Assembly: GCA_965238175.1 (NCBI GenBank)
Contig: CBDEGZ010000003.1
Location: forward strand, 1,248,001 to 1,312,000
Length of the DNA: 64,000 bases
DNA from: Gammaproteobacteria bacterium
GTDB lineage: Bacteria; Pseudomonadota; Gammaproteobacteria; CAJXQU01
Reading direction: 5' to 3'
Positions 29,705 through 44,353 of the stretch are shown piece after piece. Positions within the stretch are counted from its first letter, which is position 1; each line of letters begins with the position of its first letter. The notes under the pieces are model-generated. The model was not told where the DNA came from and searched no databases. It saw only the letters and a list, made by a program, of their open reading frames with translations. The position numbers were made by a program, and so were the translations under genes.

Positions 29705-30080
29705 TGGTGGAGACGGCGGGAATTGAACCCGCGTCCGCAAATCCTCCGCCTTTGGATCTACATGTTTAGCCGACTCTTTTAATTTAACTGGCCACTACCC
29801 GAACGGCAGGATGCGTGTACAGCGATTCCGGTAAAGTTTTAGGGAATCCACGCCGGACGCATTTCATCACGATCTTATGAGAGTCGACGCCTGAGTGTTC
29901 CGAAGAACCTGGACGCATAAGCACGGCTCCAGTCAGACGGCAATCTACCGGTTATTAAGCGGCGAGTGCGTAGTTGTCGTCGTTGGCAACTAAAAGTTTG
30001 CAACAATGATTTACGAGGAATGCTGCCTCCTCGACATGCACCTAAGGTTTTGTAACCCGCGTCGAAGCCAAGTCGTCCCC
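29705..30080 (-). ncRNA. ssrA: tmRNA; tag peptide ANDDNYALAA (29987-29955)
   Basis: 5' GGGGACGAC, 3' T-arm and ...GTCTCCACCA; resume codon GCC then AAC GAC GAC AAC TAC GCA CTC GCC GCT TAA. Confidence 0.98.
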
Positions 30081-31566: not shown

Positions 31567-31643
31567 ATTCATATTATATTTTCCACATAACTAATACTTC
31601 TGATCGTCTATTTGTTATCTCTCAGTTAGCTCTCTGGATTATA

Positions 31644-32123
31644 TCAACGACCTTTCAGGATCCTTTGTTGTTCTCGACCCCAATCGCGCTCTTTTGACGC
31701 AGCGCGTTTGTCATGTGCTTGTTTACCTTTAGCTAGTCCAACTTCGATCTTGGCGCGACCTTTTACCCAATACATTGCGGTAGGCACTATGGTGTAGCCC
31801 TTTCTGTCGACGGCTGAAGAAAGTTTTGCAAGTTCATAAGTGTGTAATAGTAACTTTCGTACTCGTGTTTTATTGGGAGTGATGTGTGTGGAGGCTGTTT
31901 GTAGAGGCGTGATGACGCAGCCATGTAACCAGGCTTCTCCTTTATGCATCTGAATGTGGCTGTCGAGGATCTGTATTTTCCCAGCGCGCAGGCTTTTGAC
32001 TTCCCAGCCTTCAAGCACAAGCCCAGCTTCAAAACGATCTTCAATATGGTAGTCGTGTCGTGCTTTTTTGTTCCGGACGATAGTGCTGGATGGAGCTTTT
32101 GGTTTTTTCTTTGTTTTAGCCAT
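31644..32123 (-). CDS. smpB: SsrA-binding protein
   Basis: NKKARHDY..E..EAG.VL.GWEVKSLR, RKLLLH, AKGK..HDKR. Confidence 0.98.
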   Translation of the reverse strand: MAKTKKKPKAPSSTIVRNKKARHDYHIEDRFEAGLVLEGWEVKSLRAGKIQILDSHIQMHKGEAWLHGCVITPLQTASTHITPNKTRVRKLLLHTYELAKLSSAVDRKGYTIVPTAMYWVKGRAKIEVGLAKGKQAHDKRAASKERDWGREQQRILKGR

Positions 32124-32199
32124 AACGAGATATTATATCAAATCCAGATTTTTCAAATTGGAAAATTAATATCAGTCGCGGCATACTTCACAATAAAAA

Positions 32200-33630
32200 G
32201 TGTTTCCTAAAAAAGTAGATAAGAAAAGTGGACAAAAAAGATGGGTAACAATAGTGGGTAAGCGAGAATCAATTCATGGGCAGTGGTCTTCCCGCTGGGC
32301 ATTTATTTTAGCAGCCACAGGATCGGCTGTCGGATTAGGAAATATCTGGAAGTTTCCCTACATTGCCGGTGAGAATGGCGGCGGTGCATTTGTTTTAATC
32401 TACCTTGTTTGTATCTGCTTGATCGGCGTTCCAATTATGATGGCGGAAATTATGCTCGGTCGTCGTGGTCGACAAAACCCGATCATGTCTATGGAAACCT
32501 TGGCAAGAGAAGAGAACACCTCACCGAAATGGAAAGTGCTTGGTCTGATGGGCGTGCTTGCCGGTTTTATTATTCTGTCTTACTACAGCGTCATTGCGGG
32601 TTGGGCAATGTCCTATGTTTTCAAATCAGCTGCCGGGCTTTTTGTTGCAAGTGATGCAGAAACAGTGGGGAATATTTTTGCAGGACTAGTTTTATCACCA
32701 CAGCAATTAACGATCTGGCATAGCCTTTTTATGCTGTTCACGATGTTTGTGGTTGCACATGGCGTGCGTTCTGGTTTAGAAAAGGCTGTTTTTTGGTTGA
32801 TGCCGGGGATGTTTATTATTCTAATATTGTTAGTTGGTTTTGCAATAGCGAAAGGTAATTTCGCGCAAGGTTTTGCTTTTCTTTTCTCACCTGATTTTAG
32901 CAAAGTGGAATGGGGAACAGTTTTGACGGCGATGGGGCATGCTTTTTTTACGCTGTCTCTTGGTATGGGCGCGATCATGATTTATGGGTCCTATCTGCCG
33001 GACAGTGTCTCGATCGCAAAAACCAGCTTTATGGTCGCCGCCGCTGATACGTTAGTTGCTTTGCTTGCTGGGTTGGCTATTTTCCCGATTGTCTTTGTCA
33101 ATAATCTTGAACCGGGTGCCGGTCCTGGTCTGGTTTTTCAAACCTTGCCGATCGCTTTTGGCCAAATGCCGGGTGGTGTGATCGTTGCGACTTTATTTTT
33201 TGTTATGTTGGTTTTTGCCGCCTGGTCTTCAGCAATTTCTTTGATCGAACCAGCCGTCACGTGGTTAGTTGAGAAAAAGGAAATGACGCGCAAAAAAGCC
33301 TGTGTGGTTTCAGGGTTGGTTACATGGCTTTTAGGAATAGGAACGGTTTTATCGTTTAACGAATGGTCGTTTTCTTTCACGTTTGCAGGGCAAGAAAAGA
33401 CGACTGGTTTGTTTGATATCCTTGATATTTTAACTGCAAATATTATGTTGCCGTTGGGTGGATTATTAATTGCCATTTTTGCTGGTTGGAAAATGGCGAA
33501 AAGTTCGACTTTGGATGAGCTTGGAATGACGGCTTCTGATCTTGGCTATAAATCGTGGCGTTTTCTAGTCCGTTTCGTTACACCGGTTGTGGTGATCATT
33601 ATCATGATGAAAGCACTGGCTATTTTCTAA
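32200..33630 (+). CDS. Sodium-dependent transporter, NSS/SNF family (true start may be GTG 32254)
   Basis: W.SR..FILAA.GSAVGLGNIWKFPY..GENGGGAF; GHAFFTLSLG; GPGL.F. Confidence 0.93.
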   Translation: MFPKKVDKKSGQKRWVTIVGKRESIHGQWSSRWAFILAATGSAVGLGNIWKFPYIAGENGGGAFVLIYLVCICLIGVPIMMAEIMLGRRGRQNPIMSMETLAREENTSPKWKVLGLMGVLAGFIILSYYSVIAGWAMSYVFKSAAGLFVASDAETVGNIFAGLVLSPQQLTIWHSLFMLFTMFVVAHGVRSGLEKAVFWLMPGMFIILILLVGFAIAKGNFAQGFAFLFSPDFSKVEWGTVLTAMGHAFFTLSLGMGAIMIYGSYLPDSVSIAKTSFMVAAADTLVALLAGLAIFPIVFVNNLEPGAGPGLVFQTLPIAFGQMPGGVIVATLFFVMLVFAAWSSAISLIEPAVTWLVEKKEMTRKKACVVSGLVTWLLGIGTVLSFNEWSFSFTFAGQEKTTGLFDILDILTANIMLPLGGLLIAIFAGWKMAKSSTLDELGMTASDLGYKSWRFLVRFVTPVVVIIIMMKALAIF

Positions 33631-33663
33631 TTAAAAGTCTAAAAAGGAACAGATCGATTAAGT

Positions 33664-34095
33664 ATGAGCAAAATTAATAAGCGCGTTCTGGTACCGTATA
33701 CTGCCGAGCAAATGTATGGATTAGTCAACGATTCCAGCCACTATCCTGAATTCTTGCCCTGGTGCGAAAGTGTACGTGTGATTGAACAAAGTGAGACGGC
33801 AATAAAGGCAGAAGTGAGTGTCAGCAAAGGCAAGATCCGGCAGTCGTTTATTACCCAAAATAATATGGTTCCGGGTGAACGAATCGAAATGAATCTGATT
33901 GAAGGATCTTTCAAAAGCTTGCATGGTGTATGGCAATTTTCGTCACGAGGAGAAGTGGGTTGTGAAGTGACTTTGGAAATGGAATTTGAATTTGCAAAGG
34001 GCTTGCTCGGATTGGGTTTCAACAAAGTTTTTAGTGGCATAGCTGGTTCTTTGATGGATGCATTTTGCCAACGAGCAAGACAACAGTATGGATAA
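33664..34095 (+). CDS. ratA: RatA/PasT START-domain protein
   Basis: VPYTAEQMY.LV.D...YPEFLPWC; F..RA end; context next to smpB. Confidence 0.92.
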   Translation: MSKINKRVLVPYTAEQMYGLVNDSSHYPEFLPWCESVRVIEQSETAIKAEVSVSKGKIRQSFITQNNMVPGERIEMNLIEGSFKSLHGVWQFSSRGEVGCEVTLEMEFEFAKGLLGLGFNKVFSGIAGSLMDAFCQRARQQYG

Positions 34096-34360
34096 AGTCC
34101 TCGTGGCCTATGGTACGGTTAAAGAACAAGTTGAGCTTGAACTGTGTTGGCTGCGGGGAGAAACGGTTGAGGGTTTGATCATACGATCAAATATTCTCAA
34201 AAGTTTTCCTGAAATTGATCTTAAGAATAATAAGGTAGGAATATTCGGAAACTTATGTGAATTAGATGATGAACCCGAGTTGGGTGATCGCGTTGAAATT
34301 TATAGACCTTTAAGAATCGAACCTAAAGAGTCCCGACGACTCAAGGCTAAGAAAACATAG
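34088..34360 (+). CDS. ratB: RnfH/RatB ubiquitin-like protein
   Basis: VGIFG...GDRVEIYRPL..PKE.RR; overlaps the ratA stop. Confidence 0.88.
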   Translation: MDKVLVAYGTVKEQVELELCWLRGETVEGLIIRSNILKSFPEIDLKNNKVGIFGNLCELDDEPELGDRVEIYRPLRIEPKESRRLKAKKT

Positions 34361-34510
34361 TTCTGAATTTTGCAAGAGTTCGGAAACCAAGAAATGATCA
34401 TATCGAAATTAATCTGAAACCCATAAGCTGACGCCAAAATTCTGATTACCATTTGAACCTACAGCGGCTTTTTTCATTCGAGACAACAGCAATCGACGTT
34501 AATAATTGAG

Positions 34511-34843
34511 ATGAAAAAGGCCAATCCTGGTTATATCGTTACAAAACGCACTGAATATCACTCAAAGTATGAGCTGGAGGGGTTGTGTTGGGAGAACTTG
34601 CCCACGAAATGCTTTGGGCATAACAGTGTCATGGAAAGATTCTTTAGGAGTTTAAAAACAGAACGACTGAATCTATTAAGTTTTATCAATCATATTGTGG
34701 CCGTTATTGTCGTAGAGAGTTACATCTATTTTTATAACTACAGACGATTACATTCTTCTTTGGGTGATATCACGTTTGCGCAGAGGACAGCAGAAATGAA
34801 AAAAGTGGCTTAAAGTTCGTTCAAAATTACTTGACTATCACAC
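34511..34843 (+). pseudogene. IS3-family transposase C-terminal remnant with right end
   Basis: NSVMERFFRSLKTE...YI.FYNYRRLHSSLG; followed by IR-like TTACTTGACTATCACA. Confidence 0.8.
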
Positions 34844-35093
34844 TTTGATTTGCCCCGATTTATTGAGTGCTAATCTTTAATCAGATTTTCTTTTTGCAAT
34901 ATTTTTTACCTGGGTACGAATAAAACGGGGAGAATTCAGTTTCAAAAAAGCCTGGTCAGTTTGATTGGATAACCTCTATAATTTATAGATAAACAAGCTG
35001 ATTTTTACACAGGCACTGAATTTAGTTATAAAGGCACATCACCTGTTTTTGTCATGTTACTAATGCTCTCCTTGTATAGGGCTCTTTTCGATT

Positions 35094-35135
35094 AAAAAAT
35101 ACCCGACAGCACAAGAAATACTGTCGGGTAAAAAA
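35094..35135 (-). terminator. Terminator of the PHP-like gene (bidirectional form)
   Basis: TACCCGACAG / CTGTCGGGTA perfect 10-bp stem flanked by A runs. Confidence 0.8.
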
Positions 35136-35169
35136 TAAATTATTCATCTTTTATTTTTACTCTTACTCT

Positions 35170-36414
35170 TTAATTCTGTGCATCTACCCACAGAGGCCCT
35201 TTTATAGCCTGTGGCCAGGCCCGTTTGCGTGTATCTATTGGATCCAGAGCCTGGAAACGGATCCAATAGAAATCTTCCCAACCTGTATCAAGTGAAAAAG
35301 TAGTTTCGCCCTTGCTCTTGGGCATAACACCATTAACACGAACCTTATCCGTTGCAGAATCTTCCGGCTTGATCCCTTTACGTGCAATCGCCTCCATAGA
35401 ATATTGCCAAATGACCTCACTGTCTCCTGAATTGAGTGTTACCGTCCTGTTCGCTGCGTTATATACGACAGCACGTTTTGACTCATGAAGACTTAGCCCG
35501 CTACTTGCGTAAAAATCACCTGCTCGTAACGCGAGAAGAATCCCCGACCCATTAATTTCATCGTTTTCACTCGATGCCGGCCCCTCAAACTCCTCCACCC
35601 ACACATGAACAGAACCTATTGGATTATTCTTGAGCTCATCGAAGCTGTAGTCAGGACTCCAAAAAGAATCATTACCGGCAATGGCATGAAGATAGGTGCC
35701 ACGACTCAATAACTCATCAATAAGCCACTCACCATATTCAAACTGATAAGGCGTAGGTTTTCCTTTAATCGCTGCTAACTGACTGAAGCTATTAAAAATT
35801 TCCACACCCATCACGTCGAAATTAGTATAGAGTGGCTCCTTCGATTGGATGCTCCAAAGCATATTTTCCCACGTGTTATTGTCCTTATAAACAGGGACAC
35901 TTTCATTCTCACGTTCGAAAATATTGTAATACAGGGGGTGTACGATATAGGAATAAGTCGAAAACGTATCACTATGTGACTTTATCTGATTAACATGGAT
36001 AAACTGGCCACGTCTGTTTTCTGTAGAAAAGTAGCCCTTCCAATCGGCTTCTGGATCAATATCAAGATCCGGATCTGCCAGTTGCTGGGGGGTCCAGTCC
36101 CATAAATTATTTTGTAGTTCACGTGCCACCATTCCTACCATAGGAGATTTATGTGTATCAGCTTCCCAAAGACCAAAATTACCATCTTTTAATTTTCCGC
36201 TGCTGTCTGCATGTTGCGGTTTATATACATGTGGTCCACATGCAATAAAATCATATTTAGTAGGATAATCAGGATCATCTGCCAGTGTATGCGCAGCTTT
36301 AAAAACATCTGACATTGAATCTGCACCATATATATCTTTATAGGTTCCAGTTTCATACACTATTGAATGGCAGTGAATTGCGCCTACAACGGTTTTGGTT
36401 TTAAGAGCTACCAT
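35170..36414 (-). CDS. Divergent PHP-fold (CehA/McbA-like) metallohydrolase
   Basis: GAIHCHS (HxH), YDFIA..PH, VHP, GVEIFNS, AIAGNDS, ILLALRAGDFYASSG; RBS GAGGGG. Confidence 0.65.
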   Translation of the reverse strand: MVALKTKTVVGAIHCHSIVYETGTYKDIYGADSMSDVFKAAHTLADDPDYPTKYDFIACGPHVYKPQHADSSGKLKDGNFGLWEADTHKSPMVGMVARELQNNLWDWTPQQLADPDLDIDPEADWKGYFSTENRRGQFIHVNQIKSHSDTFSTYSYIVHPLYYNIFERENESVPVYKDNNTWENMLWSIQSKEPLYTNFDVMGVEIFNSFSQLAAIKGKPTPYQFEYGEWLIDELLSRGTYLHAIAGNDSFWSPDYSFDELKNNPIGSVHVWVEEFEGPASSENDEINGSGILLALRAGDFYASSGLSLHESKRAVVYNAANRTVTLNSGDSEVIWQYSMEAIARKGIKPEDSATDKVRVNGVMPKSKGETTFSLDTGWEDFYWIRFQALDPIDTRKRAWPQAIKGPLWVDAQN

Positions 36415-36589
36415 AATAAATTCCCCTCACTTAATGTAATGTTGTTGTCATTATCGAGATTGACAATGTCATGATAAAGATTATGTGATTTTAATACTGT
36501 GGGACACGGCAAACCTGTAGGCAAAAGTGTACTTAAAACTGTTGGCAAAAGAGAGGTGGTGGTGCGAAAATCATATATGGTCTCCTCCC

Positions 36590-36819
36590 GTATTGCAAGA
36601 TAAAACATTCAGATAACAGGGACAGGATTGCTGTCATATATACGGCCTTCAATGAAGTTTTCAACTTCTGACCTGGATGTATTACGCGCCTATTTTCCTT
36701 ATCAGGTTATCGGTATTAGTTACCCCTGAGCTCGACAGGTTTTCAATAGGCTGGTTTGACCTGTTATGCCATCTTTAGTTTTACCTTCGCAATTCGTTGA
36801 AATGATTTGTTCTCTCTAT
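36590..36819 (-). ncRNA. Predicted bridge/seek RNA region of the IS1111-type element
   Basis: Position typical of IS1111. Contains TAACCTGAT matching the target flank and ATATATGA matching the circle junction; stem GCCTATT/AATAGGC. Exact ends unknown. Confidence 0.7.
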
Positions 36820-37833
36820 TTAGGCCGGTGAGTAGTCATCACCAGAAACCGTTATAGCCCAGGCCATTCTTGCCATTTTGTTGGCATACGCCACACACGC
36901 TCGATTATGCCCCCGCGTCTCAACTAAACGATTAATCCATTGACTCAGTTTATCGCCTTTCGTTTTGGCTCTTGATACCACGGCCTTCGCGCCTAGAATT
37001 AACAAACAACGAAGGTATTTATTGCCGCGTTTACTGATCCCCAGTAGCACCTCTTTACCACCACTACTGTACTGTCGTGGAACAAGTCCTAATGAGGCGG
37101 ACACATCGCGCCCTTTGTGATAATGAGCGCCGTTTCCCACTTCATTAAAATACGCGCTCGAGACCATCGGCCCAAACCCTGGAATAGTTTGTAAGCGTTG
37201 GCAAATCGCATTGTTTTTTGCCGATTGAATGATCAATTGGTCAAATGTCGCAATACAGGCATCAAGTGATTGCCATTGTTCCTTTAGCTGGCGCAGTATC
37301 CTTTTGAAAGTAACGGACAACCGTTCGTTCTCATCACTTAATAGCAACGGGATAGATTGACGTAGGGTATTTAGGCCGGGACGAAGGCTAATGCCATATT
37401 CTGCAACAAGCGCTCTCATTTGGTTACATAATGCGGTTCTTTGTCTGACCGCTAAGTCTCTTGCTTTATGTTGTGCCTGGTTGTCTTGTTGCTCAACTGA
37501 TTTAATGCCCACACTTTTTAAATGAGGTTGTTTCGCAGCAACGGCGATGGCCAAGGCATCGTTATAATCATTCTTATTGCCGATTAGAAATGCGTTAACA
37601 TGCTGAGGTGGTAGTAATTTCACCTGATGTCCCTGTTGTTGTATCGCTCGGGCCCAATACTGTGACGTTGCACAAGATTCTATTGCGACTAAACAAGGAG
37701 GTTGAGATTGAAAAAAGGAGAGTACCTGCGCTCGCTTTAACATTTTCTTTTTGATTATACGCCCTTGTTGATTACAGCAGACAGCATGAAATACGTTTTT
37801 TGCTATGTCTAACCCGATTGTTGTAGTCTTCAT
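36820..37833 (-). CDS. IS110 family DEDD recombinase/transposase
   Basis: IGLDIAK, AIESC, NKNDYNDA, L.TIPGFG, GLVPRQYSSGGK, SKRGN.YLR, ANK.AR. Confidence 0.96.
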   Translation of the reverse strand: MKTTTIGLDIAKNVFHAVCCNQQGRIIKKKMLKRAQVLSFFQSQPPCLVAIESCATSQYWARAIQQQGHQVKLLPPQHVNAFLIGNKNDYNDALAIAVAAKQPHLKSVGIKSVEQQDNQAQHKARDLAVRQRTALCNQMRALVAEYGISLRPGLNTLRQSIPLLLSDENERLSVTFKRILRQLKEQWQSLDACIATFDQLIIQSAKNNAICQRLQTIPGFGPMVSSAYFNEVGNGAHYHKGRDVSASLGLVPRQYSSGGKEVLLGISKRGNKYLRCLLILGAKAVVSRAKTKGDKLSQWINRLVETRGHNRACVAYANKMARMAWAITVSGDDYSPA

Positions 37834-38019
37834 TTTGGTCTTCTCCTCTTTTGATTGTGTGTATGTCAGTTCAATCATGGCACCTAGATGCCGTTAGGGG
37901 GAGGAGACCATCACATCAGGTTAGCTCATCAGGGGCTGTTGATCGTTCATTTTTGTCACTAATTCTATCGAACCTGCCTTGGCAGAATACATAGTGTTGT
38001 GCGAAGTAATTGATACAAT

Positions 38020-38982
38020 TTAATGATGTAAAATCCAGGGAACGATTTCAGCAAGATCGTCATTCTCAACGACAACATCGGATAAATCTTTATGTGTAAC
38101 ATAATTCGGTTGGCAGGCAATGGTGAGTCCTGCTGAATTAACGACTGATTTGCCAGCAAAAGCTGCGCCTACGAATGCACAGTTGCTAGAGGAGATCCCT
38201 TGATCCCTGCAAATATATTCAATACCCCGTGACTTCTCATCAAGATCGTAGGGTGTTGGCGTAATAGACTGAAGAGATCCCCTGTTATCATATTTAAATC
38301 TATTGATGAATATATAATCGAATAGCCAGTAACAGTCCGGGATCATTATTTCCAGCAACGTATCTATACCTCCGGAAATAATAGCAGTTCGTACTCCTGA
38401 TAATTTTAACTGGTCCAGTGTTTTATAGAGATTATTTGTTACGTGGGTAGTCTGGGAAATAAGGTGAAAGTCTTTTTTTGATAATCCATAATCGATAAAG
38501 TATTTTCCGCAATATACACACCATTCCTCATAGTTAATCTTGCCGGTATAAAAAAGTTTAAGCCCCCTTTTCCTGAGTTCTCCGTTGTCACCAATAAATT
38601 CCCAAACCAATCGCCAGGAGAAATCAAACCCTTTTAACAATGTTCCATCTAAATCAAAAATAACCAACTTTATTTTATCTGTTGTTTGTTCAAATTTTAT
38701 TGCTTCTTTCTTAATTGGGCCGTCAGTTTTTTTATACAGAGACAGGAAAATTTCACCGATACTTTCAGATGGACTCAGTATGATGTCATTCCAACTTTCA
38801 AGCCCGAATCCCTTTGCAATTAATTCTAAACTTCGTTTTTGAGGTCTGAGCGTTTTGCCTGATTCCCAGAGATGATATTGTTTTCTATCAACGCCGCCAC
38901 AAGCAGTACCTGCTTCTTCCTGAGACCACCCATTTTTACAACGCAGCCAATATAACTTTTCTTTATATAATCTCCATTTCAT
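38020..38982 (-). CDS. XRE-type HTH fused to a HAD (phosphoserine-phosphatase-like) domain
   Basis: LR...GWSQEEAG...Y..WESGK..P HTH; FDLDGTL motif I, ISGG motif II, K motif III; motif IV reads GAAFAG instead of GDxxxD. Confidence 0.85.
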   Translation of the reverse strand: MKWRLYKEKLYWLRCKNGWSQEEAGTACGGVDRKQYHLWESGKTLRPQKRSLELIAKGFGLESWNDIILSPSESIGEIFLSLYKKTDGPIKKEAIKFEQTTDKIKLVIFDLDGTLLKGFDFSWRLVWEFIGDNGELRKRGLKLFYTGKINYEEWCVYCGKYFIDYGLSKKDFHLISQTTHVTNNLYKTLDQLKLSGVRTAIISGGIDTLLEIMIPDCYWLFDYIFINRFKYDNRGSLQSITPTPYDLDEKSRGIEYICRDQGISSSNCAFVGAAFAGKSVVNSAGLTIACQPNYVTHKDLSDVVVENDDLAEIVPWILHH

Positions 38983-39113
38983 TTTTCAGTGTCCTGTTTT
39001 CCAATAGATGGATCAAGTAGATCAATATAGCTGGAGTGACTGAGTTATTATGGTTGTTTTGGAAAGAATCTTCCTTAAGATGGTTAACTCACCAAAATTC
39101 AATCACCCTGATC

Positions 39114-39512
39114 CTATTGATTTTTGATCCTGCTAATTTTATTCATTTTCACCATACCGGATAAAAACTCTTGGTACAGTAATTTATAGAAGCCCCATGT
39201 TGTTAAGATTAATATCACCAAATAAGGTAATCTGGCGATAATCAATGCGGTTTGTAATGTTTTGAGTCCGGCTGCGAGTAGTAAAACTCCGACAACAGCA
39301 CCTGCAGCAATCCCTAAAAATGTACGATAGCGTGCGAAAGGATGTTCGCTACTCATCGATAACAATGTACAAATAACCAGGGTTGCTGAATCAGTCGGGG
39401 TTATAAAGTAAGTCACCAGAAGAATGGTATAAACTGATGTGGCAATTATCGTCAGAATCGTGTCCACTTCCATCAATTCAATGGTGGTGAATAGTGCTGT
39501 TTCAATACCCAT
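39114..39512 (-). pseudogene. C-terminal fragment of a BCCT (betaine/choline/carnitine) transporter
   Basis: ALF...LLVTYFIT..DSATLVI...GL..LQTA.II..LP; only ~130 aa of a ~500-aa family. Confidence 0.75.
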
Positions 39513-39847
39513 TAGTGTGCCGCTTTAAGGCTTAAAGCGGTCAGTGTAACCCGTCATTATGACAAACAGATTACAACCACTTGATTGGATACGATCTTTC
39601 AAGGCAGCTGGATATAAAATTATTCATACGCCACCTCAACAGGAGAGGTACAAATGAAACAAATAGTCGTATTTATTGCACTTAGTTTTTTTATTTTTTC
39701 TCTTCTGAGTGATGTCGAAACAAAATTAATTCAAGACCTATTCAAAGATCGGCTAAAAGCATTTTCTGACAAGGTCGTGACGGAAGGTTTGATTTTGACC
39801 AAGTCTTAAGTAGTTGCCATGGAACGTAAGCAACAGGATGAGATGAT

Positions 39848-40141
39848 GGGACGAAAGAACATAAAAAAATTGGATGGTATTGGGTGTTGCTTATGATGTT
39901 CCTCGCATTAACATCTTTATATGACTTGATTGGTAATGGTTGGCTTAGCTTACCAGCACATATATTTACATTAACAACATTTATTCTTTTGCCTTTGGCG
40001 ATTTGGTCTGCGAGAAATGGAAAAATTCAGTTCCATAAGTATTGTATGTGCATATTATTTGGTGTTTTAATAGTAGCACTTATCGCCTTCCTTCTCGTTC
40101 CCGGTAGATTATTGAATGTCTGGTTTCTTGGCGGCGCTTAA
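39848..40141 (+). pseudogene. 5'-truncated DUF2306-like membrane protein (first cassette)
   Basis: In-frame GTKEHKKIGWYWV...H.F....I..H...M...PGRLL; upstream in-frame stop, no start. Confidence 0.6.
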
Positions 40142-40147
40142 CCTAAC

Positions 40148-40207
40148 AGCTAACAAGGTGCTCAATCAAGGACGCGCTAACGCGCGCCGCTTAACTTGGC
40201 GTTAGCT
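40148..40207 (+). repeat. Integron attC site 1
   Basis: R'' AGCTAAC ... R' GTTAGCT (complementary), 60 bp, internal GCGCG.AA.CGCGC hairpin. Confidence 0.8.
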
Positions 40208-40229
40208 CTATAAGAGGAATAGTAACCAA

Positions 40230-40847
40230 ATGAATGATTTATATACGCAAGTGATCACCGTTTTTTTAGGCTTTTTTGCGATCATGAATCCTATTGCCAA
40301 TACCGCAGCCTTTGCTGGTCTGGCAGGAGACAAAAACAAAGCAGAACAAATTAAAATTGCAGCTAAAGCACTGATTATTACATTTTTTGTGATTCTATCT
40401 TTTGCGCTACTTGGAAAAGCGATCTTTCACTTATTTGGTATTACTATTTCTGCATTGAGGATAACAGGAGGTATTTTAGTATTTCTTGTCGGCTATCACA
40501 TGCTCAATGGACATGCTTCCAAGTTACATTCAGCTGAAAATAAAGAAGGATCTGATATAGCGGTATCGCCTTTAGCTGTTCCGCTTCTTGCTGGCCCTGG
40601 AACCATTGCAACTGCAATGAATTATTCTTCGTCAGGAGAAATAACAGGGATACTAATAACTGTATTTGTATTTGCAGTTTTATGTCTTATAACGTTCGTC
40701 TGCTTTATTTTCAGCTCAAATATTCTGGCGGTAATAGGTAAAAGTGGCCTTAGCATTGTTACTCGACTGATGGGGCTAATTCTTGCTGTTATAGGGACGC
40801 AAATGGTGATTATTGGGGTAACTGCTGTTGTCAGTACAATGAGCTAA
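40230..40847 (+). CDS. MarC family membrane protein (gene cassette)
   Basis: FFAIMNPI, ALRITGGIL, IAVSPLAVPLLAGPGTI, TRLMGLILA; stop lies inside the R'' of the next attC. Confidence 0.92.
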   Translation: MNDLYTQVITVFLGFFAIMNPIANTAAFAGLAGDKNKAEQIKIAAKALIITFFVILSFALLGKAIFHLFGITISALRITGGILVFLVGYHMLNGHASKLHSAENKEGSDIAVSPLAVPLLAGPGTIATAMNYSSSGEITGILITVFVFAVLCLITFVCFIFSSNILAVIGKSGLSIVTRLMGLILAVIGTQMVIIGVTAVVSTMS

Positions 40848-40922
40848 CAAGGCAATGAAAAATTACCCATAAAAAACGTGGGCTGGACTCGCTAACGCTC
40901 GCTTTTTATTGCAGCGTTGGTT
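40842..40922 (+). repeat. Integron attC site 2
   Basis: AGCTAACAAGGCAATGAAAA...TTTTTATTGCAGCGTTGGTT, 81 bp imperfect palindrome. Confidence 0.75.
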
Positions 40923-40940
40923 TCATTTGGAATTCATAGC

Positions 40941-41426
40941 ATGGATTATGAGACATTAGATAACATCGCGGATTCGTATATTCCTGTGTTGGCGATTACA
41001 GCGTTTCTTACAAGTGTTCTCGTGTCTTCAGGTTCGCACAGTCGTGTAAAAATAACTTTCTTCCGTCTGGCATGCCTAAGTATTTTACTGGGGGTTGCCT
41101 ATGGTTTTATGTTTTTGGATAATGCCTACCCTATATGGCCTAACCTAGGGCTAGATTATAGTACTCACACAGCCGTTTCATTAGTCTTGGTATTATTTTT
41201 GGGGCTGCTAATTCCAAAGTTGCTTTTGCTTTGGTCTTCCTCACTAGTAGTTTATTGTGGCTTGATGCTTTATCAGGAGTATCACAGTGTGGCCGATATC
41301 TTTTCTACAGCTTTTGTATTATTTGTAGCTATGGCTGTAATTTTTTTACCAATATTAGCCGGTGGCAAAGCTAACAAGTTGCTGCACTCGAAAAAACTGG
41401 TCGCTGTGCTCCCATTTTTCCGGTAA
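40941..41426 (+). CDS. Hypothetical multi-TM protein (gene cassette), PAP2-like C-terminal motifs
   Basis: LDYSTHTA and YH...DI motifs; lies between attC 2 and 3. Confidence 0.65.
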   Translation: MDYETLDNIADSYIPVLAITAFLTSVLVSSGSHSRVKITFFRLACLSILLGVAYGFMFLDNAYPIWPNLGLDYSTHTAVSLVLVLFLGLLIPKLLLLWSSSLVVYCGLMLYQEYHSVADIFSTAFVLFVAMAVIFLPILAGGKANKLLHSKKLVAVLPFFR

Positions 41427-41440
41427 GCAAGGCGTTAGGC
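41369..41440 (+). repeat. Integron attC site 3
   Basis: AGCTAACAAGTTGCTGCAC...GTAAGCAAGGCGTTAGGC, 72 bp. Confidence 0.75.
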
Positions 41441-41453
41441 AACCAAGTTACCC

Positions 41454-42086
41454 ATGAATAACTATTTATTTGTTTTTCTTCCACTTATATTGACCGTAAA
41501 TGGTTGTGAATCAAGAAAATATGAGGATAAAACGTTGAAGTTGAAAGGAATAGTAATTTCTGAATAAAGCTATAATGGCGAAGATGAGTATGAAATTGTC
41601 TACTCAAATATTGACTATTTAAACTCTCTATTCCAAGAATATATCCTTGCCAAAGAAGTGTCTGATGATGCTCTCACAAGCTATTATGTCGATTACTACT
41701 TGGCTCAAGTGAATGAAGATCTTATCCATTTAAATTCATAGTGGTTAAAGCAACACCAAAAATTGGAAATACTAAATAAGGAGAAAATTTTAGGAAAAAT
41801 CAGATCAATTAGTCTTTCAATTCCAGATCGTGGATCGCGCATGCAAACAGCCTTAGAGGCAGAGCCTAGATATATGAAACTGATTAGGGCTCTTTGTAAA
41901 GAGGTGGGTCAAAGATTCGACAGAGTTACTGCTGGAGATCTAACAAATAGGTACAAAGATACTCAAATTTTAGCTTGGCACTTCTTAACCAACTTAGGGC
42001 ATCACTATATGATTGACTACAATGGACAGGCTATTATGTTCAGTGGAGAATCAAAAGAATTTGTCGTTACAATTTCGGTCGATTGA
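41454..42086 (+). pseudogene. Disrupted DMP19/DUF4375-like cassette gene
   Basis: MNNYLF...ISE*...YSNIDYLN...SYYVDYYLAQVN with stops/deletion; continues as ORF 41763-42086. Confidence 0.55.
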
Positions 42087-42301
42087 TGAGTATGGGATCC
42101 AGTAAAATACTAACAAATTTTGTCTGGTTGATTTTGGTCTACGTTCCTTTTTGTGCGTGGTCTGTTGGACAAAACAGTCACCGTGTTTTCATCTAATTTA
42201 TTGTATTTTGCTGAGTAATTTGAGATTTATAATATTTCAAATTGTGAGGCCAAACATAACTAAATTTTCAGACTCTCAGTTTCAACTTGAGTTAGTTTAA
42301 A

Positions 42302-43084
42302 TTAAGGATCAACAGTAGGGTTTAGTTCAGGATCATTAATGATGGCAGCATCTGGATTGACTTCTGCCTCATCATCACCGCCTAATTTGTCCCACATTTT
42401 ACCAAAGAAACCTTTTTCTTTTTCAGCGTTTTGATCAGCTTCTGGATTATTTTCTGCTTGTTTCTCAGCAGCTTCTTTAGTTGCCATTGCAGCGTCGACA
42501 TTCGTTTCAGGAAGAGTATCCTCAGTCAGTTCATTATCAATACTAGTTTGAGTGGCTTTAACAGCTTTGTCTGTATCCTTTTTCGCTTTGTCAAGATTCT
42601 TTTCTATATTAGGCGAATCATCATCTCCAAAGCTCAGTTTCTCTTTAATACGTGAAAACAAACCCGGTGGTTCTGCTGGAGGTACGTTTACACTTTCAAC
42701 AATACGTGATTCTGTCTTAATTTCACCGCGTGCAGCTTTAACATCGCCTTCGACTCGTGCTAACAATTCATCTTCAAAAAAGAGCGTTACTCGGCGTTGT
42801 TCACGTTGTTCACGACCTTCCTTAAAAGTATAGACATAATCCCAGCGATCACTGTGGAAAGTATCTGTGATCAAAGGTGTTCCCATAATGAAACGAACCT
42901 TCTTTTTATTCATACCGAATTCAAGTTGAGCCAGCATTTCTTGAGTAATAACATTTCCCTGCTGGATATCGATTGTATGGACGTAGGGGAGGTTATCTTT
43001 TGCAAGAAAACTACTGTTATCCGAGCATCCTTGGATGAACAAAAGGGATAGGCAAATTGTAAGAGTTAGGTGTTTAATTGGCAT
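42302..43084 (-). CDS. bamE: Outer membrane protein assembly factor BamE with long acidic C-terminal extension
   Basis: Lipobox IQGC; IDIQQGN..T...L..GM....V..IMGTP...D.F...RWDYVY; divergent from fur. Confidence 0.92.
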   Translation of the reverse strand: MPIKHLTLTICLSLLFIQGCSDNSSFLAKDNLPYVHTIDIQQGNVITQEMLAQLEFGMNKKKVRFIMGTPLITDTFHSDRWDYVYTFKEGREQREQRRVTLFFEDELLARVEGDVKAARGEIKTESRIVESVNVPPAEPPGLFSRIKEKLSFGDDDSPNIEKNLDKAKKDTDKAVKATQTSIDNELTEDTLPETNVDAAMATKEAAEKQAENNPEADQNAEKEKGFFGKMWDKLGGDDEAEVNPDAAIINDPELNPTVDP

Positions 43085-43196
43085 ATTATTCGTTACTTGA
43101 TCTATATTGAACAGGGTATAGTATGGCAAAAGCCCAATCAATGTTAAAATCCTTAAAGTTAAATTTACTAATAGACCCGAGATAAAAACAAACCTT

Positions 43197-43601
43197 ATGG
43201 AAACTCAAGACATAAAAAAAGCAGGGTTAAAAGTTACGTTGCCAAGGATCCGCATTTTACAGATACTTGAGAACAGTGAACAGCGGCATATGAGTGCAGA
43301 GGATGTTTATAAGGCGCTGATTGAAGCTGATGAAGATGTTGGGCTGGCAACGATTTATCGTGTTTTGACTCAATTTGAAGCCGCTGGCCTGGTTGTTCGA
43401 CATAATTTCGAGGAAGGACATTCCGTTTTTGAGTTGGCTCAAGGCGAACACCATGATCATATGATCTGTCTCGAAACGGGTAAAATCATCGAATTCCATG
43501 ACGAAGCCATTGAAGAAAGGCAGCGCGAAATTGCTGATGTTAATGGCTATGAGCTACACGAGCACAGTCTCGTACTCTACGTTAAACCTAAACGATCCTG
43601 A
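43197..43601 (+). CDS. fur: Ferric uptake regulator
   Basis: [33 protein letters not shown]. Confidence 0.97.
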
Positions 43602-43609
43602 CATTTCCT

Positions 43610-44353
43610 ATGACAGGTACCACCCACTTCGGTTTTGAAGATGTTCCCGTTGAGGAAAAACAACAACGAGTTGCACAAGTCTTTAGCTCGGTTGCCTCCA
43701 AATATGATCTAATGAATGATGTGATGTCTATGGGTATGCACCGTTTATGGAAGCCATTTGCAGTTGCTGTATCAGGTGTAAAGAAAGGTCATTCGGTACT
43801 TGATCTGGCTGGTGGAACAGGAGATATTGCTGCTTTGTTGGCAAAACGTATCGGTACAGAAGGTGAGATCACGCTGGCCGATATTAATGGTGAAATGCTC
43901 AATGTGGGTCGTGATCGGCTAACTAATAAAGGTTTGTTCTCAAACATTAACTACGTACAAGCAAATGCAGAAACGCTACCTTTTCCAGAAAATTCGTTTG
44001 ACGTTGTAACTATTGCTTTTGGTTTGCGTAATGTGACCCATAAAGACAGAGCTCTGGCTTCTATATACAGAAGTCTAAAACCCGGTGGGAAGTTGATGAT
44101 CCTGGAATTCTCCAAGCTGGTTATTCCAACGCTTGATAAACTATATGAGCAATATTCCTTCAAACTTATTCCTGAGTTTGGAAAGTTATTGACGGGTGAT
44201 AGAGATAGTTATCAATATCTAGTCGAGTCCATTCGTAAACATCCTGATCAAGAAACGTTAATCGGAATGCTGGAAGATGCTGGTTTTGAGATGAATATCT
44301 ATAACAATTTAACCGGTGGGATTGTTGCGGTTCATCGTGGTGTGAAATTGTGA
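43610..44353 (+). CDS. ubiE: Ubiquinone/menaquinone C-methyltransferase
   Basis: [41 protein letters not shown]. Confidence 0.97.

Follow-up and report, generated by a model that had tools for sequence, protein, structure and literature searches.

A putative one-component regulator with a proposed HAD-IB sensor domain and a candidate phased operator in a gammaproteobacterial genomic island

Phosphoserine phosphatases of the HAD-IB type, represented by the M. jannaschii enzyme and SerB (PDB entries 1f5s and 1l7o), possess a Rossmann-like core, a helical C1 cap and the catalytic motifs I-III. The same core, cap and motifs are present in a 320-aa protein encoded in a 64-kb stretch of DNA from a Gammaproteobacteria bacterium (contig CBDEGZ010000003.1, positions 1,248,001 to 1,312,000; the whole stretch is called the window below), which differs from 1f5s by an additional N-terminal helix-turn-helix (HTH) domain of the XRE type and by the change of GDGAND to GAAFAG in motif IV. 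We consider this HTH-HAD protein a putative one-component regulator whose proposed sensor fold and operator have not been described before, and analyze it here together with the neighboring gene for a 414-aa PHP-like protein, from which it is separated by an insertion sequence (IS). The B. subtilis regulator PurR is a one-component regulator of comparable design, with a catalytically dead, phosphoribosyltransferase-like sensor that binds phosphoribosyl pyrophosphate; the likeness lies in an HTH joined to an enzyme-derived, in our case presumably ligand-binding, domain in which catalytic residues are dispensable. We know of no earlier description of the HAD-IB fold as the sensor of a one-component regulator. 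For vWA-MoxR conflict systems, Kaur et al. 2020 (PMC7159879) have reported derived, probably inactive HAD domains, which, in the passages of that paper that treat them, originate from actinobacterial HADs coupled to APH kinases, lack the lysine and are fused to kinase, cyclase or Band-7 domains. Like those domains as described there, the HAD domain of the window protein is predicted to be inactive and to be used as a non-catalytic module; unlike them, it is phosphoserine phosphatase-like, has an HTH as its fusion partner and retains the lysine.

We put forward, tentatively but as a reading that may well hold, that an acquired ligand-sensing regulator controls the hydrolase gene through phased boxes. 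The XRE-type HTH of the 320-aa protein would bind DNA, and the HAD-IB domain would no longer be a phosphatase, because both acids of motif IV are gone; its pocket may bind, without turning over, a small phosphorylated ligand. The regulator gene was acquired horizontally in a 7.9-kb island, and an array of GGCAAA boxes with the 12-bp phasing typical of its family would have come with it. The HTH would bind as a multimer to these boxes, which are taken to extend into the -35 region of the promoter of the hydrolase gene, and box occupancy would switch the 414-aa gene, in one direction or the other, in response to the ligand. The product of that gene is predicted to be a metal-dependent hydrolase of the PHP fold, rare and cytoplasmic, that carries a beta-sandwich at its C-terminus; we guess its substrate to be a phosphoester akin to the ligand that the regulator senses. 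The IS110-family element would be a later insertion that separated the gene of the regulator from the boxes; as both genes and the array remain uninterrupted, the regulator could still act in trans.

Both domains of the 320-aa protein are recognized by Pfam, as HTH_3 at residues 10-61 (26.9 bits, cut-off 23) and as Hydrolase PF00702 at residues 104-273 (31.6 bits, cut-off 26.4). Among the NCBIfam profiles the HAD part is nearest to the archaeal phosphoserine-phosphatase-like HAD-IB proteins (TIGR01491, E 2.5e-20), with scores under the curated cut-offs (73.1 bits versus 151.9 for TIGR01491, 35.6 versus 45 for TIGR01488, and likewise for TIGR00338). The AF2 model, built on 14 orthologues (pLDDT 84.7), consists of a small helical N-terminal domain of four to five short helices, a linker, and a HAD core into which a helical C1 cap is inserted between motifs I and II (helices 122-176). 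Its best Foldseek match is 1f5s (E 5.3e-15, TMt 0.77; TMt 0.77-0.82 for 1f5s and 1l7o), and a profile comparison with 1f5s gave E 2.5e-21. The fusion of an HTH to a HAD domain noticed by a first-pass annotation of the window is thus confirmed.

The motifs are as that annotation described them. Motif I is retained as F109-D-L-D-G-T114, with D110 and D112 as the nucleophile and the acid/base Asp, and so are S203 of motif II (IISGGI) and K250 of motif III, the latter invariant in the alignment of the HTH-HAD family. In the sequence and profile alignments GAAFAG of motif IV lines up with GDGAND of 1f5s, which means that both acids have been lost in the window protein; A273 and G277 occupy the positions of what we take to be the Mg-binding D167 and D171 of the M. 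jannaschii enzyme. The cap stretch that presumably holds the phosphoserine-binding Arg56 of 1f5s is aligned with hydrophobic columns of the HTH-HAD family.

A search over 5.8 billion proteins yielded 70 homologues of the 320-aa protein. Thirteen are full-length HTH-HAD orthologues (318-359 aa, aligned over 98-100% of the length, 39-52% identity), and in the remaining ones the similarity is confined to the HAD domain (about 40% identity). With the loci obtained by scanning genomes and metagenomes, the set grew to 20 distinct HTH-HAD sequences, that of the window included, and the motifs were tabulated for 66 homologues, namely these 20 and 46 non-HTH proteins (P0015-P0060). Both motif IV acids are kept in only six HTH-HAD sequences; nine have lost the first acid only and five, among them the window protein, have lost both, so the first acid is missing in 14 of 20. 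The nucleophile Asp is changed to Ser in six of the 20. Among the 46 non-HTH homologues, 42 retain both motif IV acids (G[DE]xxND), none has Ser in place of the nucleophile, and DxD is retained in all those that cover motif I. Since six orthologues lack the nucleophile, catalysis seems dispensable in the HTH-HAD family.

These counts bear on the possibility, improbable in our view, that the HAD domain is still an enzyme and the protein a bifunctional regulator-phosphatase, its catalysis rescued by another residue or metal arrangement, which would both hydrolyze its substrate and sense it. The retained DxD, Ser203 and Lys250 would agree with such a function, as would the intact motif IV of the closest relatives; evidence against it comes from Ala and Gly at both positions aligned to the Mg-binding Asp residues of 1f5s, and by the six orthologues that have lost the nucleophile as well. 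The PDB lists the M. avium SerB2 motif IV mutants D343N, D343G and D343N/D347N, which are reportedly inactive.

In the maximum-likelihood tree 13 eroded sequences form one clade (support 100/99), and the window protein falls into a basal unresolved group with P0002-P0005, in which the motif is intact. At least two independent losses are placed on this tree, one on the terminal branch of the window protein and one on the stem of the 13-sequence clade. The nearest relatives of the window protein (P0002-P0005 and P0009) retain G[ED]xFND, which, with the tree placement, indicates that motif IV was lost in the window protein independently, on its own branch. This loss could be a recent decay in an IS-rich genome. 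The terminal branch, however, is not unusually long (0.76 versus 0.79-0.97 in its peers), and, of 72 columns with at least 85% conservation among the other 19 sequences, the protein retains 64 (family range 0.83-1.0); judged by branch length and conserved columns, it is not decaying in general.

Comparison of the two halves of the protein demonstrated better conservation of the HTH (53-71% identity) than of the HAD domain (34-49%), and the cap motif FSW..VW..RK.G..Y..G..Y.EWC is common to the HTH-HAD proteins and their catalytically intact homologues. The alignments support loss of catalytic residues as a trait of the HTH-fused clade and not a one-off event, and in our reading fusion to the HTH would have relaxed selection on catalysis, not on the fold or the cap, as expected of a ligand-binding receptor. 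The proposal of a pseudo-HAD sensor is therefore supported for the clade, with its 14 of 20 eroded sequences, and needs qualification for the window protein itself, the loss in which is separate; a normal GDxxxD motif characterizes its nearest relatives and not the HTH-HAD family overall.

In the intergenic DNA of the orthologues, GATGGCAAA-like boxes recur every 12 bp as direct repeats, two to four in number, and the HTH-HAD start codon follows 30-110 bp downstream. The pattern GGCA[AT][AT]-N6-GGCA[AT][AT] is found in 12 of the 16 orthologue loci, several of them near-identical, which leaves about seven distinct lineages; a GGTAAA variant is present in L002 and a degenerate array in L004. The usual neighbor is a divergent csrA paralogue, which lies directly upstream of the HTH-HAD gene in 11 of the 16 loci (L002, L003, L005, L006, L009, L010, L012, L013 and L015-L017); a twelfth csrA is cut by the contig end. 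Toward csrA, a T-N-TAAT hexamer lies at a constant 24 nt from the innermost box (six loci), and toward the HTH-HAD gene a TACAAT-like hexamer comes 9 nt after the last box, so the array occupies the -35 regions of two divergent promoters.

The association of the boxes with the regulator was examined in 61 relatives of one carrier genome using the exact two-box pattern. All four genomes with a full-length HTH-HAD gene have the pattern (seven sites in all), one genome with a partial gene at a contig edge does not, and among the 56 genomes in which no HTH-HAD gene was found only two have it, once at a site that looks coding and once as a real-looking three-box array; the reversed pattern gave no match in any of the 61 genomes. 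As these genomes are related to one another, the counts overstate independence. In a genome where the HTH-HAD gene lies between metG and ffh, a perfect box pair occurs elsewhere, by csrA-rnr, which fits a regulator acting in trans. For the predicted sequence-specific DNA binding of the HTH, this joint occurrence of boxes and regulator genes is indirect evidence.

Several further arrays were noted. The observations on csrA also cover L020:2670-3060, and perfect arrays away from HTH-HAD genes are present at L018:3023 and L019:3041 (genome G044) and at L025:3068 (G073). One such array is near a radical-SAM/SPASM gene and unknown small ORFs (open reading frames), another is between a MerR-family gene and an 84-aa ORF followed by a 7TMR-DISM histidine kinase, and a three-box array occurs in a genome where no HTH-HAD gene was found. 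A sigma-54 promoter as an explanation of the boxes was rejected by eye, the -12 GC being shifted by one base and the repeats numbering up to four.

The window has a candidate array of three boxes, situated in the 156-bp segment that separates the start codon of the 414-aa gene from the IS. It is the only match of the regular expression in the 64 kb and was detected only with the looser expression; the strict two-box pattern with 12-bp spacing gave nothing near the window genes, and four matches elsewhere versus 2.2 expected. There are 47 such looser pairs in the 3.35-Mb genome, hence about 0.005 would be expected in the 384 bp of non-coding DNA flanking the regulator gene. The 13-mer CTGTWGGCAAAAG, present twice in the array, is absent from the rest of the genome, an 11-mer is common to one of the boxes and a box of L005, and the array can be aligned with those of the orthologues. 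It points away from the 414-aa gene in the same way as the orthologous arrays point away from csrA. The -10-like hexamer CATAAT, from which we infer the promoter of the 414-aa gene, is separated from the innermost box by 22 nt, versus the constant 24 nt at the csrA promoters, and is about 65 nt upstream of the ATG (101 nt for the innermost box); a consensus promoter scan did not list this hexamer, and listed 36477-36450 and 36440-36413. With a position weight matrix (PWM) derived from 24 orthologue boxes, the window excluded, the three-box sum ranks 12th of 6.67 million positions, the 24-bp pair ranks 9th and a core-only version of the matrix gives rank 3; by the full matrix the array is a moderate match to the family motif and not among the best. 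The chance of a top-12 site in the same 384 bp, by arithmetic from the regular-expression and PWM counts, is about 0.001-0.005.

The boxes were also considered as a part of the IS target, which was rejected, as most IS copies have another flank and the 13-mer is unique. The 132 bp 5' of the HTH-HAD gene (38983-39113) contain no GGCAAA boxes; two GGATCA and two complementary TGATC(C) sequences form inverted repeats there.

The array has to be weighed against the explanation, possible though in our estimate doubtful, that the two genes are chance neighbors in a junk-rich island, with the boxes as a displaced or decaying remnant and the 414-aa gene as unrelated cargo with a constitutive promoter; the HTH-HAD protein would then be a stand-alone regulator whose family target is the csrA paralogue, absent at the window locus. 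Much of the genomic context agrees with it. No relative of the 414-aa protein was found by tblastn at the 16 HTH-HAD orthologue loci, and its family profile gave no match in the five orthologue-bearing genomes (completeness unknown), so from the HTH-HAD side no co-occurrence of the two genes was found, and the conserved pair suggested by the first-pass annotation is not supported. The prevalent partner is csrA; the window contains no csrA, and the only csrA of the genome is 1.2 Mb away. The island is a mosaic with IS3 and BCCT remnants, and the window copy of the IS110-family element has flanks atypical on both sides compared with other copies. The window boxes score -0.36, 7.6 and 11.5 on the PWM (training minimum 8.6, median 15.1), two of the three thus scoring lower than any box used for training, and the sum of two adjacent boxes reaches only rank 1315. 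The array is in the wrong orientation relative to the HTH-HAD gene, and no array is found at L007 and L014, the two closest orthologue loci. These observations speak against local control of the 414-aa gene, and the array could be what is left of an ancestral promoter displaced by rearrangement. Evidence against a mere accident of neighborhood, on the other hand, is the placement of the array, which is as far from the 414-aa gene as expected of promoter elements and has the polarity and nearly the spacing seen at csrA, together with its being the sole phased pair in 64 kb, its genome-unique 13-mer and the low chance expectation given above. As evidence from sequence, the array is moderate, and it favors a local link between regulator and target over pure chance. 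The control of the 414-aa gene by the HTH-HAD protein, as originally suggested, thus has gained a family-type candidate operator and lost the support of a conserved gene pair.

The closest structural matches of the 414-aa protein are 3e38 (BVU_3505) and 2anu (TM0559), predicted PHP-family metal-dependent phosphoesterases. No Pfam family matches it at E<=0.1, Pfam PHP included, and its match to NF038032 (CehA/McbA; E 2.9e-4, 20.4 bits) is well below the cut-off of 80. An exhaustive HMMER search of 1.84 billion representative proteins yielded 17 proteins at E<=1e-3, with a single full-length relative, P0072 (433 aa, 49% identity over residues 7-410); six of the 16 remote relatives match NF038032 at E 1e-7 to 2e-14. 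A shorter paralogue of P0072 without HxH, P0073, is recorded, as is P0072, on an ENA contig of 28,864 bp with the same source, and the two are probably neighbors, in tandem copies.

The motifs H14-x-H16, G60-P-H62 and N248-D-S-F251 are present in the 414-aa protein, as was first noted, and they would be equivalent to the PHP motifs as judged solely by alignment within the family and by similarity of fold. Among eight aligned members of the family, H14, H16, E99 (REIQN), H159 (HP), E205 and N208 (GxEIxN) and D249 (GND) are conserved, and the position of the His expected after D249 is filled by Phe or Tyr across the whole small family. The DSF sequence in place of DxH is therefore a family trait and not local decay.

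Foldseek placed 3e38 first (E 6e-5) for the AF2 model, and VIA-align gave Z 8.0 over 223 residues for 3e38 and 7.5 for 2anu, with TM-scores of 0.32-0.39, so that two independent aligners rank the same PHP-family pair first for a model with pLDDT 59.9. That low confidence, poorest in long insertions, and Z-scores within the range reachable by unrelated folds reduce the weight of this match. Similarly to 3e38, the model suggests two domains, a PHP-like barrel and a beta-sandwich; the N-terminal HxH is kept, and remote relatives match NF038032. The differences from these proteins are the low identity (12-14%), the lack of a Pfam PHP match, the long low-confidence insertions and NDSF instead of DxH. 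In a language-model atlas the protein falls into unnamed clusters, some with PHP, PHP_C or DUF3604, and a search of PDB sequences with the family profile gave no match at E<0.27. The gene was found in none of six congeners (the order holds only seven genomes) and none of 400 sampled genomes of the class. We consider the 414-aa protein a divergent, probably active PHP-fold metal hydrolase, its formal membership in the PHP family not being established. Structure prediction and Foldseek, the checks proposed for both proteins at the outset, thus point to a phosphoserine phosphatase-like HAD domain in one and, with low confidence, a PHP-like barrel in the other.

The locus is contained in an island specific to this genome (Table 1). 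Its flanks, approximately 31567-34379 with smpB, an SNF symporter gene, ratA and rnfH on the left and 42278-44000 with bamE and fur on the right, are adjacent in all five congeners compared, which identifies 34380-42277 as an insertion of 7.9 kb; the closest congener has a 347-bp gap at the site (84% identity). The hotspot location proposed earlier is corroborated by this insertion between rnfH and bamE, without counterpart in 5/5 congeners. A search of 40 related genomes for the HTH-HAD gene was negative. Small unknown ORFs are also present in the island.

Both genes are intact, co-oriented and, once the IS is removed, adjacent, as had been suggested; the distance from the HTH-HAD stop codon to the 414-aa start is then 252 bp (96 + 156) in place of the earlier figure of about 260 bp. 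A terminator scan listed no terminator-like site between the HTH-HAD stop and the IS, and the terminator noted earlier after the 414-aa gene lies 40 bp past its stop codon. The IS limits were set by 25 BLAST matches of more than 1300 bp in the genome, the window copy counted. The transposase, of the IS110-type DEDD kind, matches NF033542 (302.6 bits, cut-off 140), PF01548 and PF02371, which places it in the IS110 family and does not extend to the narrower IS1111 label given previously. In the majority of the 25 near-identical copies a common, ACTCGGGATAAGAATG.CCATAAAAACATTAAAAG-like flank is present on one side, and the element looks as if it targets a repeated sequence. A shared insertion site with L008 was rejected, since the IS110 gene near the L008 orthologue is unrelated (20% identity). 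A promoter-like TTGCAA-17-TATGAT (a match by consensus only) extends across the IS end at 36570-36598 on the minus strand, facing the 414-aa gene.

Table 1. Positions of the features of the locus in the window
Feature	Position	Strand	Remark
Genome-specific island, 7.9 kb	34380..42277		between rnfH and bamE-fur
IS3 fragment	34511-34813		C-terminal end of IS3-family transposase (rve_3)
Intrinsic terminator after 414-aa gene	35130..35100	-	13-pair stem (6 G-C), 5-nt loop, T-run
PHP-like gene, 414 aa	35170..36414	-	ORF open, full length
Putative divergent PHP-fold (CehA/McbA-like) metallohydrolase domain	about residues 4-310 of 414-aa protein	-	from model and weak NF038032 match
Ig/FN3-like beta-sandwich	about residues 305-408 of 414-aa protein	-	AF2 model; as in two-domain 3e38
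-10-like hexamer CATAAT, putative promoter of 414-aa gene	36480..36485	-	22 nt past innermost box
Three phased boxes, candidate operator	36505..36552	+	GGCAAA at 36508, 36520, 36544 (spacing 12 and 24)
IS110-family insertion sequence	36571..37923, 1353 bp	-	splits HTH-HAD gene from 414-aa gene
IS110-family transposase ORF, 352 aa	36820..37878	-	inside IS
Spacer, HTH-HAD stop codon to IS	37924..38019, 96 bp		IS boundary from genomic copies
HTH-HAD gene, 320 aa	38020..38982	-	XRE-HTH/HAD-IB fusion; ORF open, full length
HAD-IB (phosphoserine-phosphatase-like) domain	residues 104-320, nt 38023-38673	-	PF00702, Foldseek
Motif IV codons G272-A-A-F-A-G277	38152..38169	-	both acidic positions gone
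Linker, low-confidence/disordered	residues 87-100	-	AF2 model
XRE-type HTH	residues 1-67, nt 38782-38982	-	Pfam HTH_3
BCCT fragment	39114-39512		last 132 residues of betaine/choline transporter
marC gene	40230-40847		within island

Among the sister proteins of the HTH-HAD family, many of the phosphoserine phosphatase-like HAD-IB homologues with intact catalytic motifs (noted among P0015-P0048) are fused at the N-terminus to effector-type domains: TIR in nine proteins (PF01582), SEFIR and TIR_2 in P0016, CHAT in P0015 and P0023, nucleoside phosphorylase in P0017, a lipase-like alpha/beta-hydrolase in at least six, and nitrilase in P0033. Other HAD-only homologues stand alone or bear other N-terminal regions. 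To our knowledge, these effector/HAD-IB fusions have not been described.

We have therefore considered a defense or stress module, also raised in the first-pass annotation, in which the HAD-IB cap would sense a phosphorylated alarm molecule and the regulator would induce a harmful PHP-type nuclease or phosphodiesterase, directed at an invader or at the cell itself. The sister fusions (about 40% identity in the HAD domain) have effector parts that match the PADLOC families ThsB, RT-TIR, chat and PDC-M60C, and the locus is an insertion hotspot. Neither window protein nor P0072 has a match in PADLOC-DB 2.0, no relative of the HTH-HAD or the 414-aa protein was found in viral contigs, the orthologues reside among housekeeping genes (csrA, metG/ffh, rpiA, an AmpG-like MFS transporter gene), and the island carries no other defense gene; we regard such a module as very unlikely. 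A more general speculation, also unlikely in our judgment, is that the HAD-IB cap and core of this clade are a reusable sensor of one phosphorylated signal, which would gate suicide-type effectors in many bacteria and would have become a pure receptor rewiring transcription in the HTH branch, mostly of csrA paralogues and here of a rare PHP-type hydrolase. The window cassette would then be an inducible stress or defense module, and the HTH-HAD family would connect a metabolite alarm with the post-transcriptional Csr network.

A literature search of listings and abstracts found no description of HTH-HAD-IB regulators, their boxes or the link to csrA. If the scheme of an acquired regulator controlling the hydrolase gene is correct, the HAD-IB phosphatase fold would join the enzyme-derived sensors of bacterial one-component regulators, as an unusually clear case in which catalytic residues erode stepwise only after fusion to the HTH. 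The 12-bp-phased GGCAAA boxes would be a testable operator and a first clue to transcriptional control of some csrA paralogues, and a candidate inducer pathway would open an approach to a PHP-like subfamily that has hardly any relatives. In genome annotation, labels of the type 'phosphoserine phosphatase' on HTH-HAD genes are probably wrong.

The tabulation of neighbors and of motif IV in HTH-HAD fusions, another of the checks initially suggested, identified csrA and an eroded motif as the usual state; other neighbors of the orthologues vary among loci. A gene annotated as 'site-specific recombinase' (PF10136) is located upstream of csrA in L003, L006 and L013, and an AmpG-like MFS transporter gene is located downstream of the HTH-HAD gene in L003, L010 and L013, these flanks of the csrA/HTH-HAD pair being seen in several Pseudomonadales/Cellvibrionales loci. 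Rfam gave no match for a leader RNA on three orthologue loci, and the csrA leader at the orthologue loci is rich in GGA motifs. Finally, a tmRNA gene (29705-30080, minus strand; tag ANDDNYALAA) is found to the left of the island, about 4.3 kb away from its left edge; the distance from this gene to smpB is 1.6 kb.

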